The notes beneath the pieces were generated by a model that saw nothing but the letters and a program-made list of their open reading frames with translations, did not search any database and was not told the DNA's origin. Below are positions 156-7,943 of a stretch of DNA of 10,525 nucleotides, piece by piece. The DNA is from a virus: UHGV virus genome UHGV-0185920. One strand, written 5' to 3'. Position 1 is the first letter of the stretch; each line of letters starts with the position of its first letter. A program made the translations under genes and the position numbers.

Positions 156-2888
156 TTAATTTGCAAGCTTATTTTCCAGTTCTTCAATCCTCTTTATAAT
201 ATTTTTCTGACGTATACCTAATGCAGCAATCATTAGATACTGTAATTCATCATTTCTGAATGCATAGCGTTCTCCTGCTTCATGCGTAATAGTTATAGCC
301 TCACGAACAAGGTTACCTTCATCATCATAAACAGCTGGATCTGTATCTGTATATGCATCCCATCTGTCATAGCAGATCGCTCCGTATTTAAATGGATCAA
401 GTCCATTCTCTCTGAATATTTCCATTGCCCGTTGCACCGTAAGTCCGGCATGAAGTCTGGCATCAGCTCCCTTATTTTTTACACTATCAAGCCATTGATA
501 AAAACCAATTTCATCAACAAGAGCTAACCCAACCGCCTGCTCTTTATCGGAAAGAGTTCTGACTTCCGTTTTCTCTGTTGCATCAGATGTATTTATAGTT
601 GCAGTCCCTGCGTAGACCTGAGAAAAGCGGTTAACGGACCTTCCAAGTGATACCTGGTTATCAGTTGTTGGCCTTAATGTCGTCGTCGCCCATGTCGATG
701 TAGTATCTTTAGTCGCAGAAAATACTGTTACATTCCCCTGCTTAAGTCTGACGACACCTCCATCTGTAGAGGCAAGTATCAACTCACCAGCCGCAGATGG
801 ACAATCAGCAGCATGGATATCAATATAAGCACCACCCGCAGTATTCCCATCTTTAGAACGGAACTGCATACCTCGAAAGTTTGAGTCGAATACTGCTTTC
901 GTACTTACCCATGAATTATTGTCATGTCCGTAATCTGTATCAAACAGGTTAAGGTTATTTCCATAATTCAACTCGAGGGATTTGGTATACTCTCCAATGG
1001 CTTCGTCAAATATCGCAATAGTAAATGAACCGTGCTCACGGTTAAAGGCGATATCAGTTCCAGCATAATATTGATGCGCGGTTCCGGTATACGGATCGGA
1101 TTCTGCACCATGCACTGGATGGTTGCCAAGAATATCAGACAGGTTTGCTATTCCAAACAGATGCTTATTTCTGCGAGTATAATCACCTGATTTATATGTT
1201 GCGCCTGAATCCCATTCACCACTTGTCGCTGCAAGCGATGTTTTTAACCAATAAGACCTGTTTGTCGGAAGATTTCCCTTGTTATCACCAGTAACAATAC
1301 TTACCCAATTTTTACCACGATGGCTTACAACATCCCCTGCGCTTTTCCATACATCCATAGCACCACAGACAAGTTCATCACCTCTTATTGCCAGCCCTTC
1401 AGGCTCAAAGCTAACCGGAACTCCGATTTTAGAGTCAGAACCATTTAACTGAGTCTCTGTATAAAGTGATGCGGCAAGTGATACAGGAAATGAACGTATT
1501 AGCGTACCACCCATATCATAAATCTGTACTGTCCTTACGCATCTTGCAGGAACGCCACCCCAAATTGTGTAAATATATCTGCTATCTGATGTAATACCCT
1601 GAAGTGTTGCACCATACTGACCTTTACCACGGACAAGTGGAACAGGACCATTAATCGGTCTAACTTTCATTGGGTTAGAAGAAGATTCCACTTCTTTGCG
1701 ATCATATACGTATAAAAAGCGGCCAGTCCCAGCGTTTGATGTCGCAATTAATATGACATATCGCCCATCATTAGATACACAAATACTTGCCCGCTGCGCA
1801 AGGTTAATCAGATTATTATCACCCGGCTCACCAAATACTCGGTAATGAGTTATATCTTCAGCAGATGTTGATGCCCCTTTCCATTTTGTCTTTGAATACC
1901 CCTTCCCTCCTAGAGAGGAACCAGTCTCAGCAATTGTTGTTGTAAACAGATATAGTTCACCGTTCTCTATTGTGGCAGAAAGATCTGAACCGTGACCAAG
2001 AGGCAATGGCTCTGTAAATGTCACAACATAAAGAGTTGAACCATCGCTTGTATAGTGCCACTCACTGATCCTTGTGAGGGTGTCCGTTCCCCAGTTAGAA
2101 CCTCCAACCTGTTGAGTGATAAAAACCTTCTCAATACCTTCATGCCTTACACAAGCTATTCCCTGCAATGCATTTTGTGCATTCGCATATATAGTTGGCG
2201 CATTGATATCATCACCAAAATTCAGGGTCGCAAGTTTTCTTTGTCCAATGGAGAAACTTTGCATCGGCGGATTAACAGAAATGCGAACACCATTACTGAT
2301 TAGAACACCATCACCGGAGAAGCGTGAAATATCTATTTTCGATGCATCAACTATAAACTCACCAGAAGGCACATGAACCAAACCACTATTTCCTGCGCTA
2401 GATGCGGCGTCAAGAAAAGCCTGTGTTGAATCTCTATTCCCAGAGTCATCCGCCCCCCACCCGCGAACGTCTTTATCATCCCGCCATCGTGCAATCTGTA
2501 ATTCAGGGTATTTTTTAGCACCATCAGGATCTTCTAATTGCTGCCGTAACTGATCCGGGTCATACTTCAGCACATTCGGAAAATAGAACTGCTGCGTACC
2601 ATAAGCATCGTACACAGCCATAGAGTGTCCTTTCACAGTAACGAATTTGGCAATCTGTCCGTTATATACAGGATATCCAGCAGCATTGATAACGATTGGT
2701 TGCGAAACAGGAACGTGAGAACCATCTTCATTCTCTACATAAACCTGAATCTGGTTTTCAGGATTTACAGGGTCAGTGTCAATTTTACCGATATAAATTT
2801 TTCCATTAGCTACGGCTTTAAAAGAACGAGCCATAGTGAAGAGTTGAGAAGGCATCCCAATTACAACATTTGGAGTTATATCAGGCAT
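156..2888 (-). CDS. Tailspike protein: P22 gp9-like N-terminal head-binding domain, central receptor-binding/depolymerase domain of unknown specificity, C-terminal peptidase-S74-type intramolecular chaperone domain
   Basis: Minus-strand ORF 156..3041 in the track. From MPDITPNVV through [26 protein letters not shown] to LKYDPDQ the protein matches the P22 tailspike N-terminal domain as I recall it. Start chosen at ATG 2888 (AGGA 8 nt upstream); alternative ATG at 2897; the track Met at 3041 adds 48 residues with no homology. C-terminal SDATEK (Ser and Lys at i and i+5), HAGLTVQ and [10 protein letters not shown] resemble autocleaving tail-fibre chaperone domains. Confidence 0.9.
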
Positions 2889-3235
2889 ATTAGTCATCCT
2901 GTTTGAAAATTTAGATATTGAAGAAAACGGAATGACTGCAGACAAAGATGCAATTGTTTTGAAAAATAATCTTCTATTCACTTTAAAACTATGCAACATG
3001 AACAAAACAATTATTTTACAACAAGCAAGAATCTTGATCAACAGACATATGCTTTATGCGTTTAATGCGTCACTTAAAAATAACAAGTACTACTTTTATT
3101 CCTATCGTCCATGATTTTCATTTTCAAATATTATTAAATAACAATTCCTATTTATAATATCTGTCATTTAATTTGCTCCAGATACAAGGAATCGCTGCAG
3201 CGTGGCCGCAGTGATGCATTATTAATCAAATAAAG

Positions 3236-3250
3236 AGACCACAGTGGTCT
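3236..3250. promoter_or_regulatory. Perfect 15-bp palindrome AGACCACAGTGGTCT; candidate Mnt operator, abutting a candidate mnt promoter (TTGAGG 3253..3258, 17-bp spacer, TAAGAT 3276..3281)
   Basis: Palindrome read directly; it sits 64 bp upstream of the mnt start and its CCAC-N-GTGG core resembles the P22 mnt operator as I recall it. Promoter hexamers are weak matches picked by eye. Confidence 0.45.
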
Positions 3251-3313
3251 TATTGAGGATGCAACCAGCAGATAATAAGATGCCGCTCCACTCACAAAAG
3301 CGAGGCATCAAGA

Positions 3314-3565
3314 ATGGGAAGAGATGACCCGCAATTTAATCTGCGGCTACTTTACGAATTAAAGGAAAAACTAAAACAGCGAGCCAAATCCAATGGCCGC
3401 TCTCTTAATTCAGAATTAGTTCAGATAGTGACTGATGCTGTATCAAAGCCATCCAAAATTTCAGACTATCGAGACGATGCAGAACGCATCGCTGATGAGC
3501 AGTCCGAACTTGTTAGGAAGATGGTGTTTGATACGCTGAAGGATTTGTACAAAAAACCCACCTGA
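3314..3565 (+). CDS. mnt: Mnt repressor (P22 immI maintenance repressor, ribbon-helix-helix family)
   Basis: 83-aa ORF; GRDDPQFNLRL, NGRSLNSELVQIV and DAERIADEQSELVRKMVFDTLKDLYKK closely match P22 Mnt as I recall it, including the C-terminal tetramerisation region; GAGG 8 nt upstream of the ATG. Confidence 0.9.
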   Translation: MGRDDPQFNLRLLYELKEKLKQRAKSNGRSLNSELVQIVTDAVSKPSKISDYRDDAERIADEQSELVRKMVFDTLKDLYKKPT

Positions 3566-3583
3566 AGGTGGGTCCTATTTATT
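3551..3583. terminator. Bidirectional rho-independent terminator between convergent mnt and the lipoprotein gene
   Basis: 7-bp perfect stem ACCCACC (3556..3562) / GGTGGGT (3567..3573) with TGAA loop; A-run on the left (a U-run for the minus-strand transcript) and T-rich tract on the right. The mnt stop codon TGA at 3563..3565 lies in the loop. Confidence 0.6.
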
Positions 3584-4001
3584 AGTCTTGCTTTGTTGAT
3601 GGTATAAGAGATGCGTTTGCCTCTTTTGGCTTCAAGGTATACATCCCACCATTAAAAGGATCTACAGCAAGCCAACCAATTAACCCACCAAACACAAGGT
3701 TTCCACCAATATACCAGCCATTAGCATTGGCTTTGATTGGCAGGGTAACTGGTTCGTACCCATCCTTTTCCATAGTGATCTGGTAGCTCTTTTTGCCAAA
3801 ATAACTACCATCTGACTTGGCAAGAGTTACTCCTTGTGGGGTCTTACCTTGCGCAACAATCACGCCTGATTCGTCTTTTACCTTAAAGCTCGCACCGGAA
3901 GGATTGCTGTTCACTTGCACAAGCTGCGTTTCGTCACCAACAATAGTTGCGCACCCAGATAACAATATAGCGCCAGCAACGACGCCAATAATCCTCTTCA
4001 T
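3582..4001 (-). CDS. Putative lipoprotein with C-terminal glycine-rich (glycine-zipper-like) segment; function unknown
   Basis: ORF 3582..4013 in the track. Signal peptide with lipobox (MKRIIGVVAGAILLSGC) and glycine-rich GGNLVFGGLIGWLAVDPFNGG near the C-terminus. Start placed at ATG 4001 (MKR) rather than 4013; the 4001 versus 4013 choice is uncertain because neither has a strong RBS. Confidence 0.7.
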   Translation of the reverse strand: MKRIIGVVAGAILLSGCATIVGDETQLVQVNSNPSGASFKVKDESGVIVAQGKTPQGVTLAKSDGSYFGKKSYQITMEKDGYEPVTLPIKANANGWYIGGNLVFGGLIGWLAVDPFNGGMYTLKPKEANASLIPSTKQD

Positions 4002-4599: not shown

Positions 4600-5646
4600 T
4601 CATAGGCTGGTGTTCAGAACGTTTACCGGAGTGGTATCAGCAAGAGAGGTGTTTACGTTAGCGTAAGCCTTCTCTTCTTTTGTCAGTGACGCGTCATCCA
4701 GTGCAATCGGTTTCGGCGTGATTTCGATGTGAGTACCATCGATCACACGGGTGATTGAGAAAGTCGCATCATCAGTTAGCACGTTCTTCGCCATCTGAGA
4801 CAGGAATTTCACACCAGTGAAACTGATTTTGTCGCCGCGCTTAAATCCGGTGGTGGAGGATACGGTCACCGTTGCAACACGGTTGTCGACGTTCTCTTTG
4901 TTACCATCGGTATCAAGGGTGTATGCCTGCGGCTTAAACTTCTGCGCACCAGAAACAGTTACACCAGTAGCGGTTGACTTGGTAACTGCCGGAAGTTTCG
5001 GTGAGCGAAGAATTTCATCAAAGCCAGCAATCTGACGCTGAATAGTACCGTTGCGATACGCTTCTTCAGGAACGCGACCGAAGATGTCACCATCTACCAG
5101 GTTGCGGCCTGCTTTGCGGTAATCGTCAGGGTTCAGGAAGTAACTGATGCCCATGTCGCGGTTGAGTTCGCGGGAGAACATCAGGCGCTCTGCATCAGAC
5201 ACAAAATCCCAGCCAGACAGGCCAGTAGATGGACCAATTGCGCGGGTATCGTGAACAACAAGTGAGCCCATTTCAGTTGCCTGTTTGGCAATTGCTGACT
5301 CAATGTTATTCGCCAGTTTTTTAGCGGATGCCTGGATGCGGCGACGGTAAGAACGCTCATCACGCAGGTCATCTGCACGAAGCTCGAAGAAATCGTTATC
5401 CGGATCGCCCATGTTGCATTTCACGGAGAGTTCCAGAATCCCAGTTGCGTTGCCAGTTAAATCCCAGCCAGTCTGGGTTGGCGCTTCCTGCTCAACAGGC
5501 ATCCACACGGTGTTGCTTGAACGCCGCATGGATTCTGCCGGAGGGGTGTATTTTGTCACTTTGGACGCCATTGGCGTCAGATTCTGGACGGTTTCGATGA
5601 TTTCATCCAGAGCATACGTGACCAGTTGACCTTCATTTAATGCCAT
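4600..5646 (-). CDS. Coat (major capsid) protein, P22 gp5-like, C-terminally truncated (348 aa versus about 430 aa for P22 coat as I recall)
   Basis: [83 protein letters not shown] and [10 protein letters not shown] match P22 coat; homology stops within a few codons of the stop at 4600. AAGGA RBS 8 nt upstream; the start overlaps the scaffold stop (TAATG). Could equally be annotated as a pseudogene. Confidence 0.85.
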
Positions 5647-6557
5647 TATCGAATTCCTTTATTCAGTTGCGCCTTGAGCTTGCGGTACGTCTCTACATCC
5701 CTTTTGTTTGCTGCCGCTTCCATCTGCTTTTCAATCGCAGAGATATTTGCAGCAACAGCGTGTCCCTGAATTGGTTCATCAGGTAACGGGGCTTCTGAAA
5801 CAGGCTTGGCTCGAGGCTTGAGAGTTAAACGTTCTGACAGTCGAGTGAGTTCAATCAGCGCGGATTGCCCGTCCATCGCCAGCAACTGGCGTGTTTTTTC
5901 AGGATTAGCACCAAGGTGATACATGAGAGCAGCGGATTTCTCCGGGAAGAGGCGCATGATGTCGGCACCGACTGCTGGCGGCACCAGTTGCATGAATGCA
6001 TCCTCTTTCTCCTGATAGTCAGGGATATTGAGCTTTTCCGCTGCGTCGTAGTGCTTACGGGCTGCCTCGACGTATTGCGCTGATTGCTGGGTGAACTCCT
6101 GAGTTTTGCGACCCTGCTCGGCGACAGCCTGGCTTCGTGCGTCCATAGCCTTGATCTGCCATTCACTGTTTGCCTGCTGGAAGGCAGCCAGTGCGCGGCT
6201 CTGGTCATAGTCGTACTTAGCCAGTGCATCTTCGGAAAGATAATCGTTAGGGTCTGGTTGTTTTGGTAACTCAGGGTTCACCCGCAGGTGCTCCGGCAAC
6301 TCTCCACGCTTAACCGCTTCCATCTGCTGCTCAAGCTCACGCTGGCGTTTGCGTTCGATGCGGCGACGGGCAAATTCAGCATTAGTTGCCGGGTCTTGTT
6401 TTGGTTTCTCATCGTCTTTCAGGACAATCTCGAAGCCTTCTTCCTGACCTGCGTTGTCGTTGGCATTATCGACAACTAAGCCATCAGCAGATGCCGCTGC
6501 ATGATTGCCGGGCAGGGTTAATTCTTCAGAAGCCTGAATGTCGGTGGTTTGGTCCAT
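5646..6557 (-). CDS. Scaffolding protein (P22 gp8-like), apparently full length (303 aa)
   Basis: [62 protein letters not shown] and the C-terminal coat-binding region ([16 protein letters not shown]) match P22 gp8 as I recall it; it sits immediately upstream of coat with a TAATG overlap. Confidence 0.9.
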
Positions 6558-6570
6558 GATTAACTCTCTC

Positions 6571-7311
6571 TTATTGAGGTGTCTCGGCTACTCCGCCGGA
6601 GGGGATTTGAACTTGACGCATAAGATTCGCGAAATCCATGCGTTGTGAATGAGTCTGGTCTGCATCTTTAAGAAGCAGCTCAGCGTTAGCACGAGCATCT
6701 TTGCTGCGCTGTTGCTGGAATTGACCTACTAGCTTGAGGTACTCACGCAGTTCTGCCTGCTTGTCGAGGTCCATATTGTTGAAGATTTCTGCAATCTTCG
6801 CGGCGTTGAGTTGGTTTTGGGCTTCAACCTTGGCGGCTTCAACCTGAATCTGCGCCTGTTGGTTCTCTGCCTTGAGCAATTCAGCCTGACCTTGCAGAAG
6901 GATACCCTGCGCCTGAATTTGCTCTGCTGATGGCTGCTGCGGCTGCTGTTGAGCCTGCTGTACCATCTCCATCTCTTCAGGTGTTTCTGGTTTCTTCAGC
7001 CCCATCATCACCAGTTGCTTGTTCGCGTAACGCCCGGTAAGGTGAAACGCGACTTCAGCAGCACCAGTAAATGACTTACCAAGCTGGTTACCAGCCATAA
7101 AACATCGCTCTGGATAGTCATGCCCGGCGTCGATGAACTCACGCTGTTTGCTGTATGGCGTAAATTCATATACCGGAGAAACAGGAGAAGAGTTCTCGGT
7201 AAATATCTCGCTTGAGTCATCAATGCGATATCGGGCGCGTCCTGACGCTTCAACGATTTTATGGTGGATGGAACAGAGTGAAGAAGCCAGAAAATCGCTA
7301 ACCAGCAACAC
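6571..7311 (-). pseudogene. In-frame fusion remnant: large terminase N-proximal fragment (Walker A region, about 7027..7170) joined to portal protein C-terminal fragment (about 6571..7026)
   Basis: The upstream part contains [48 protein letters not shown], a large-terminase ATPase Walker A region. The downstream part is a Q/E/A-rich helical tail ([25 protein letters not shown] ... ETPQ) ending 13 nt before the scaffold start, where the portal C-terminus lies in P22. The first 47 track residues show no homology. Confidence 0.7.
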
Positions 7312-7630
7312 TCAAGAGCTTTCAACGGCTCTTTCATGGTTATCTGAATTCATCATAAAGAACGCCAACCACAAATTCGTTCAGGTTTGGGGGAATGGAG
7401 CATCATTTGACTGCGTTATTCTCCGCAACAGTTATTCGCTGACAGGGCAGCCAGTTCCGTGGCAGTGGTGGAATGACCGCGACGTAAGAACAATCGTCGA
7501 ACTTGGGAAGGTAATAGGATTCGACCCTAAGCGAGATATGCCATTCAAAGGAACTCGCCACAACGCGCTTGATGATGCCATTCACCAAGCCAAATACGTT
7601 TCAGCGATCTGGAAAAAGTTAGCTAAATAA
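7133..7630 (+). pseudogene. DnaQ-like (DEDD) 3'-5' exonuclease, N-terminally truncated (Exo II and Exo III motifs present, Exo I region missing)
   Basis: WGNGASFDCVIL (Exo II-like) and HNALDDAIHQAKY (Exo III-like), plus WWNDRDVRT, match the small phage exonuclease family; no DxE-containing N-terminal segment is found in any frame upstream; the 5' end overlaps the terminase fragment on the opposite strand. Confidence 0.65.
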
Positions 7631-7646
7631 TCAACAGGAGAAAACC

Positions 7647-7943
7647 ATGCCAGCGCCTCTGTATGGTGCGGATGACCCGCGCCGCTGTTCCGGCAATTCC
7701 GTATCGGAGGTGCTGGATAAATTCAGAAAAAACTACGATCGGATAATGTCGCTACCGCAGGAAACGAAAGAGGAAAAGGAATTTCGCCACTGTATATGGC
7801 TTGCAGAGAAAGAAGAACGAGAGCGAATTTACCAGACATCAATCCGACCATTCCGCAAAGCCACATATACCCACTTCCCTGAATATATCGACCCGCGCCT
7901 GCGTAATTACCGCTCACGCTATGGCGCTATCAGTAATGACTGA
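7647..7943 (+). CDS. Hypothetical early-region protein (98 aa)
   Basis: ATG with AGGAG RBS (7636..7640); co-directional and tightly packed with neighbouring genes; no family recognised. Confidence 0.6.

Follow-up and report, generated by a model that had tools for sequence, protein, structure and literature searches.

The 10,525-nucleotide (nt) stretch of DNA analysed here (UHGV virus genome UHGV-0185920, hereafter the window) carries on its minus strand an open reading frame (ORF) of 246 amino acids (aa), in which a fragment of a large terminase subunit gene (TerL) is fused to the 3′ end of a portal gene. The joint between the two, named J2, is a deletion scar that runs from TerL codon 82 to portal codon 570 and arose when the two ends were joined illegitimately over a 2-nt TA overlap. 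The window is identical to part of the Escherichia coli TUM10008 chromosome (NZ_CP135658.1) and represents a decayed P22-like (Lederbergvirus-type) prophage of an E. coli clone with three deletions (J1, J2 and J3). We consider it highly probable that the explanation as a whole holds, namely that J2 is a TA-overlap deletion scar in a defective P22-like prophage, that the fusion is non-functional, and that two deletion ends recurring among such remnants come from breakage at fixed sites.

The joint was located by a three-way alignment of the window with nt 669-749 (TerL) and nt 3633-3713 (portal) of the intact phage Louie, in which the two genes start at 467 and 1967, respectively. With a slash marking the joint, the parental sequences read ...ACCGGGCGTTA/TCCAGG (TerL) and ...GCGAGAGTA/CGCGAAC (portal), and the window sequence over the joint is ...ACCGGGCGTTACGCGAAC. 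The common TA occupies positions 1 and 2 of both TerL codon 82 and portal codon 570; as both codons encode tyrosine and lie in the same phase, the fusion product is in frame. Compared to Louie, nt 712-3675 have been lost, and because these 2,964 bp amount to 988 codons in the intact phage, the reading frame is preserved. An earlier reading of the window, made from its sequence alone (the sequence-only reading), had recognised this ORF on the minus strand (7311..6571), a switch near codon 95 (around 7027), about 3 kb missing between terminase and portal, and a chimeric ORF with its frame intact; all of this is borne out, with the joint now placed at 7029-7028.

The ORF is composed of 46 residues antisense to an exonuclease gene, 48 residues of TerL and 152 residues of portal protein. 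Window positions 7172..7028 correspond to nt 567-711 of the phages JEP4 (100% identity) and Louie (99.3%), within the annotated TerL gene of each, and ORF residues 47-95 align with Louie TerL residues 34-82 by BLASTP. This part contains the Walker A P-loop AGNQLGKS (ORF residues 72-79), identical to Louie TerL residues 59-67, and a Pfam Terminase_6N match spans ORF residues 70-116, beginning at Walker A and covering profile positions 1-46 of 215. The complete ATPase domain, including Walker B and the catalytic Glu, and the nuclease domain are absent, only codons 34-82 of 499 being left, and no Terminase_6C match was found on the ORF in a Pfam profile search. The terminase-like N-proximal part proposed by the sequence-only reading is therefore correct for residues 47-95, including the Walker A loop, and incorrect for codons 1-46, which are antisense exonuclease sequence.

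The C-terminal part is equally well defined. ORF residues 95-246 match Louie portal residues 570-721 at 151 of 152 positions (BLASTP), and window positions 7029..6400 show 99.8% nucleotide identity to the portal 3′ end and scaffold start of phage APC_JM3.2. A PHROG portal match covers ORF residues 94-230, ORF residues 91-246 align with residues 567-725 of the solved P22 portal 3LJ5 (E 3e-55), and a further alignment was obtained with a 109-residue portal fragment, chain 9PDP. In the P22 portal the crown spans residues 525-600 and the barrel residues 600-725 (PMC5290284). The 152 residues thus comprise the end of the crown and the C-terminal helical barrel of a P22-type portal, as had been anticipated for this tail. 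The core needed for a dodecameric ring (wing, stem and stalk/clip) disappeared with portal codons 1-569, and a Pfam profile search returned no PF16510 match on the ORF. From the ORF stop to the scaffold ATG there are 13 nt, the spacing already noted from the sequence alone and the same as in Louie (4132 vs 4146).

A second junction, J1, at 7172-7170 accounts for the absence of TerL codons 1-33. It brought in the exonuclease/abc2 sequence that extends over window 7700..7170 (99.2% identity to phage mEp235), and ORF codons 1-46, antisense to the exonuclease, are open by chance. Antisense TerL supplies the ATG and the first 13 codons, all foreign, of the 165-aa exonuclease annotated on the opposite strand. 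The third junction, J3, lies at 4615-4612 and is out of frame with the DNA-ejection gene gp16. Each of the three junctions has colinear flanks in intact relatives, a short overlap (TAT at J1, TA at J2, GAAC at J3) and no inserted element, as expected of microhomology deletions, and among complete E. coli genomes each was found only in TUM10008. The coordinates of the features are collected in Table 1.

Table 1. Features of the fusion ORF, its junctions and neighbouring genes, in positions of the window
Feature	Position	Strand	Description or basis
Chimeric ORF, 246 aa	6571..7311	-	ORF listing
Coding sequence (CDS) called by the Prokaryotic Genome Annotation Pipeline (PGAP), 175 aa, WP_241380463.1	7098..6571	-	Last 175 residues, from ATG at 7098
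Antisense exonuclease gene, first 46 codons of the ORF	7173..7311	-	Exonuclease/abc2 match over 7700..7170
TerL island, 145 nt, codons 34-82, with Walker A loop AGNQLGKS	7028..7172	-	Nucleotide match to JEP4; BLASTP to Louie TerL
J2 crossover TA, common to TerL codon 82 (TAT) and portal codon 570 (TAC)	7028..7029	-	Three-way alignment
Portal 3′ end, codons 570-721 and stop: last ~30 crown residues and whole C-terminal barrel	6571..7029	-	Louie portal, 3LJ5
J1 crossover TAT; exonuclease gene without its first 88 nt joined to TerL nt 101	7170..7172	-	Sequence comparison
5′-truncated 3′-5′ exonuclease gene	7133..7630	+	Annotated ORF, 165 aa, WP_098704034.1
Scaffolding gene	5646..6557	-	Intact; start 13 nt downstream of the fusion ORF stop
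Coat gene cut at ~codon 345	4600..5646	-	J3 joins last 83 nt of gp16 gene

The portal-side break of J2, GCGAGAG^TACGCG (Louie 3673^3674), was found at exactly the same nucleotide in five further junction types from different prophages, here named T2 to T5 and AST19. T2 to T5 were retrieved from other P22-like remnants through one exact 144-aa ORF, P0004 (MGLKK...). All four share with J2 the nucleotide at which portal homology starts and differ in the left neighbour: the late-operon leader upstream of the holin gene in T2 (up to the joint ...AAACACAG), codon 8 of a cro gene in T3 (...TTGCCGAT), a DUF551 gene in T4 (...TGTTTTGG) and a position just upstream of a ral gene in T5 (...CATACGGA). 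The native sequences of the five left partners, TerL included, all read TA right after the break (TATCC, TAGCC, TACGCC, TATCC and TAGTCC). The T2 to T5 remnants have different immunity-I regions, each with further deletions of its own, and at least one of them (T3) is located in different host DNA. Common ancestry of the right flanks of the truncated types is not supported, since each of these flanks resembles some intact phage more closely than it does the flanks of the other truncated types.

A complete-genome scan that was not selected through P0004 compared 300 nt centred on the portal site with all complete E. coli genomes. It gave 221 matching records, 219 of them full length, and both partial matches break at 3673^3674: TUM10008 keeps the right side and AST19 the left. 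The AST19 joint reads ...GCGAGAG/CAGCAG and leads into a truncated tail-fibre gene, and the right edge of the portal island is the exact complement of the J2 portal breakpoint. As a control, 14 other breakpoints were mapped in the same remnants and were all different. The T2 to T5 junction types were not found in complete E. coli genomes. In IMG/VR, at least 119 loci at the portal site, among the matches listed, all read as intact portal genes; no non-native sequence was seen on either side of the site among these matches, nor in two further scans, and no truncated portal was present among 15 loci from GTDB representatives of other species.

In AST19 (NZ_AP043612.1, thrW locus; L179, 8793-9150) the portal island is 358 nt long, corresponds to Louie 3316-3673 and lies between an ead/Ea22-like fragment and the 5′-truncated tail-fibre gene, annotated as “head spike fiber”. 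Three short portal ORFs (P0002, P0006 and P0026) were considered as further deletions and rejected, as they represent intact portals interrupted by frameshifts or nonsense codons, or contig ends. A Shigella flexneri locus (L033, GCA_900485495.1, ~2850-2880), on a contig found in six samples, has a CAA>TAA nonsense change four codons downstream of the hotspot that splits an otherwise intact portal gene into ORFs of 573 and 145 aa.

A second end behaves in a similar way. The TerL-side end of J1, CTGC^TATATG, is located at Louie (L186) 566^567 and window 7172, and it is reused with different partners in two other complete genomes (break positions 6001 in L184 and 2168 in L185). In strain E66 (NZ_CM173951) the arrangement is Q/TerL567..832/gp4, with the joint reading Q...CACAAGG/TATATGAATTT where native Q continues TATCGG. 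Isolate 48 (NZ_CM194529) has the arrangement TerS-TerL..569/gp16 and keeps TerL up to ...CTGCTAT. The TAT overlap is seen for J1 and E66.

Of 5,426 complete E. coli genomes, only TUM10008 carries J2, but so do over 100 draft contigs. In the assembly collection, 240 index blocks list the exact 175-aa product, which was encountered on 109 contigs, and the junction occurs in assemblies from NCBI, ENA and Logan, while a 25-mer over J2 was not found in IMG/VR viral contigs, JGI metagenome contigs or GTDB species representatives. Thirteen contig loci compared with the window differed from it at 0-1 positions each and, where flanks were present, occupied the same chromosomal site; the form carrying J1 is clonal.

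The order of events can be read from relatives of this form: J2 and J3 predate J1, and the insertion of the insertion sequence (IS) IS1 followed. Three 233-aa fusions (P0017, P0020 and P0021) have the same joint and the native TerL N-terminus (MELDAILD...), and their contigs carry TerS directly upstream and the native TerL GTG start. In five metagenome contigs J2 is present with the native TerL start and J1 is absent, from which it follows that J2 came first. Contig L023, with the order DUF2560-TerS-fusion-scaffold-coat (348 aa)-...-Arc, differs from the window by one mismatch in 4,381 nt and has the J3-truncated coat gene downstream, as does L026, the same element at ~0.3% divergence from L023. 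Two more short contigs carry J2 in a ~1% diverged background with a different TerS allele, and the pattern is present in two independent samples. In TUM10008, IS1A sits in the prophage integrase (window 10449-10525; L003 8190-8887); since a draft locus (L006) has the same remnant with an integrase free of IS1, this insertion is later than the deletions.

An end fixed to the nucleotide, joined to varying partners that always have a terminal TA, with either side kept, fits breakage of a fixed bond followed by microhomology joining, and the recurrence of the portal end hints at such site-specific breakage. In the proposed mechanism, DNA would be broken or nicked at two fixed sites, one in TerL and one in portal, and any microhomology of 2-5 nt at another place in the prophage would then serve to join or prime the fixed end. 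The sequences across the two hotspot bonds are GATGCGAGAG^TACGCGAACAAGC and CACACCTGC^TATATGAATTTACG. We tentatively propose, as a broader hypothesis less probable than its negation, that site-specific nicking or cutting at terminase C^TATATGAAT and portal G^TACGCGAAC repeatedly inactivates P22-like E. coli prophages, with healing at TA microhomology to give nested deletions, the agent being a homing-type HNH endonuclease of competing phages or a host function. On this hypothesis, J2 would exemplify a sequence-targeted way of inactivating prophages that has so far gone unrecognised.

Several points speak against the explanation favoured here. A nuclease, an IS element or a DNA structure that would explain the fixed ends was looked for and none was identified. 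The five right-side-kept types were obtained via P0004, which biases towards breaks a few tens of nt upstream of its start, and only the complete-genome scans are unbiased, with small numbers. The contigs with J2 and without J1 are metagenomic, and the 145-nt repeat shared with co-resident intact phages could generate chimeric paths; the recurrence of the same allele pairs in independent samples counts against this. Finally, PGAP annotates the fusion as a normal CDS, and it is unchanged over the whole clone. With respect to DNA structure, no significant hairpin or palindrome was detected at the portal site (DNA fold z-score -1.3, weak inverted repeats only), and the window holds no second or inverted copy of that site. 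To our knowledge, no restriction, Chi, att, dif or invertase site fits, and no such likeness is claimed.

Among possible agents, the fixed ends may be cleavage or nicking sites of a phage HNH homing endonuclease, whose cuts in a resident or co-infecting genome, when not repaired from a template, would be healed by microhomology joining with loss of all DNA from the cut to the partner site, a proposal that we regard as possible and rather less than probable. Several HNH genes are found in P22-like coliphages: the Louie genome (PQ850616.1, L186, 38 kb) has five annotated ones, one of which lies between scaffold and coat, 1.4 kb downstream of the portal site, and HNH_3 genes also occur in L027, L029 and L178. 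The breaks are two-sided and nucleotide-precise, and SegB of phage T6 provides a precedent, as it cuts many degenerate sites and drives rearrangements, with microhomology observed at repeat ends (PMC13096335). Both hotspot sites share the motif TAYRYGAAY, but the motif was spotted in hindsight and shows no enrichment in Louie (5 hits vs ~4 expected), which makes it only a lead. However, no enzyme has been tied to the sites, genomes with and without HNH genes have the same sequence at the site, and double-strand ends in E. coli are normally resected, so that both ends could be kept precisely only if the DNA was nicked or its ends were protected. The case for HNH target sites, built on recurrent ends and on HNH genes in relatives, is circumstantial. 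The listed coordinates of HNH genes in Louie are 5058-5585, 22694-23161, 28241-29041 and 32852-33629.

It is unlikely that an IS once resided at each hotspot and was later lost, along with the DNA flanking it on one side, through excision-deletion that was either transposase-dependent or of the IS-excision enhancer (IEE) type. Such events would account for one fixed and one variable end, deletions in either direction, short microhomology and the lack of a remaining element; IS1 has been active in the TUM10008 lineage, where it interrupts the integrase, and the IS-excision enhancer of enterohaemorrhagic E. coli makes deletions of this type. Nevertheless, none of the 221 complete-genome records has the portal region split by an insertion at the site, the viral-contig matches listed show no non-native sequence next to it on either side, and an IS would have had to hit the same nucleotide in at least six different prophages.

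Slightly less likely still is that the coinciding breakpoints reflect sampling together with an ordinary preference for microhomology, with J2 a random illegitimate deletion. The retrieval of T2 to T5 through the single ORF P0004 limits where their junctions can lie, and the unbiased scans are small (two partial matches at the portal site, three known cases at the TerL site). Yet five left partners end at the same nucleotide and all natively have TA, for which the probability is ~(1/16)^5. The sole left-side-kept case ends at the complementary position, the second site, in TerL, behaves alike, and the 14 other breakpoints in the same remnants are all unique. A topoisomerase-mediated exchange would give the same pattern as breakage at fixed sites.

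The fusion ORF itself is almost certainly useless, a mis-annotated pseudogene fragment and non-functional by-product of the deletion. Of TerL it has 48 residues, which provide a Walker A loop but neither the remainder of the ATPase nor the nuclease, and of the portal it has the barrel but not the core. A scan of window 6400-7800 revealed no sigma-70-like promoter or terminator-like site, and the natural start and the late-operon context and promoter are lost in the window, J1 having removed the late-operon context. In addition, the isolated P22 barrel is monomeric and largely unfolded in solution (PMC5290284). These features, together with conservation that is uninformative, lead us to the pseudogene reading. 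Of the two same-strand gene-to-gene junctions J2 is in frame and J3 is out of frame; one in two is what chance predicts, and the frame of J2 is best regarded as fortuitous.

We consider it very unlikely that the protein is functional, for example through a free portal barrel, alone or with the Walker A stub, that hinders superinfecting P22-like phages at assembly or DNA ejection and has been retained on that account. All assemblies compared have the ORF intact, its precursor form had the native TerL start and was coupled to TerS inside the late operon, and portal C-terminal ORFs persist in several other remnants. However, the clone shows 0-1 differences in 10 kb and is too young and uniform for conservation to mean selection. 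The barrel was retained in the other remnants owing to the search method, and these remnants differ in all else. Moreover, as noted above, the window has no promoter-like site upstream of the ORF and has lost the natural start, and the isolated barrel is mostly unfolded.

That the junction is an assembly artefact or the ORF a natural single protein is practically excluded, nothing having been found in favour of either: a 2-nt overlap cannot create a mis-join in a de Bruijn graph and the junction occurs in a complete genome as well as in many independent isolate and metagenome assemblies, while the two halves, searched separately, are 99-100% identical at the nucleotide level to two different genes, at positions separated by 2,964 bp in the same intact phages, and the only full-length matches to the ORF are the same scar in other assemblies.

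The surroundings of the fusion are those of a defective prophage. The phage-derived block is flanked by the host genes espL1/yniD and thrS. Read along the minus strand, it starts with the IS1-split integrase, followed by small early-left genes, abc2 and the 3′-5′ exonuclease (all on the opposite strand), and continues with the 246-aa ORF, the intact scaffold gene, the truncated coat gene, two small non-virion genes, an Arc/Mnt-type gene and the tailspike gene. The arrangement is that of a P22-like prophage stripped of most of its genes. Repressor, replication, lysis and TerS genes are missing from the block, as are gp4-gp20, and TerL, portal and coat are all incomplete. A phage satellite, such as a phage-inducible chromosomal island (PICI) or a P4-like element, does not describe the block, since the window has no replication genes and no TerS/pac region, its integrase is disrupted, and the IMG/VR viral contigs do not contain the element.

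Cryptic or defective lambdoid prophages, of which Rac, DLP12, e14 and Qin of E. coli K-12 are examples, resemble the TUM10008 remnant in many respects. They likewise lie between host genes, have lost replication, lysis, packaging and most virion genes, and consist of fragments and a few intact genes with an IS-interrupted integrase and clonal inheritance; such “grounded prophages” decaying by internal deletion have been reviewed (PMC6379469). In contrast to them, near-identical intact phages allow every junction of the TUM10008 remnant to be placed at single-nucleotide resolution, an intermediate (J2 and J3 without J1) is extant, and two ends match those of unrelated remnants.

At the protein level, residues 95-246 of the fusion correspond to residues 571-725 of the P22 gp1 portal (3LJ5), that is, the crown end and the 200-angstrom barrel. 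Unlike gp1, the fusion has no counterpart of residues 1-569 (wing, stem, stalk/clip and most of the crown), and therefore no portal ring is possible. Similarly, AGNQLGKS and its flanks (TerL residues 34-82) are identical to the JEP4 and Louie TerL and belong to a P22-type TerL with a T4-like ATPase N-domain (Terminase_6N), although only 48 of 499 residues are left and the remaining ATPase fold and the nuclease domain are gone. The SegB/T6 system (PMC13096335) shares with the TUM10008 case breakage at defined sites, short-homology junctions and a lineage rich in free-standing endonuclease genes; it differs in that no endonuclease is tied to the two sites described here and that these are large prophage deletions rather than amplifications in a lytic phage.

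Taken alone, the scar represents routine prophage decay and the chimeric ORF an ordinary by-product of it. What is added here is the exact anatomy of the junctions, the order of events and the coincidence of two ends with those of unrelated remnants. The series from intact phage through J2 and J3 to J1 and then IS1 is a rare ordered one that can be used to date domestication in a single E. coli clone. If the recurrence holds, prophage decay in the P22-like family would be partly directed by a sequence-specific break and not by random deletion, and the two sites would be ready substrates for testing the responsible nuclease.

A warning for annotation also follows. The 175-aa product bears conflicting names, being a “portal protein” in GenBank and a “terminase large subunit domain-containing protein” in RefSeq; the 246-aa form has been deposited as “MAG TPA: Portal protein [Caudoviricetes sp.]”. 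The 5′-truncated exonuclease is annotated as an ordinary CDS.

Two minor observations concern other assemblies. In L025 and L031, both ENA “METAG-scaffold” records, the remnant contains N runs and apparent extra small deletions, for example from window 7286 to 7126, which are probably scaffolding artefacts rather than further decay. In E. coli SCAID URN1-2021 (NZ_CP082824.1; L004, 11900-13650), TerL breaks off after ~288 nt; next to it, in inverted orientation and with frameshifts, come abc2, exonuclease and ssb, all in a large duplicated prophage segment. This truncated TerL was rejected as a relative of J2, being an unrelated rearrangement in a duplicated, frameshift-rich prophage region that could be a real inversion or duplication, or else an assembly problem.

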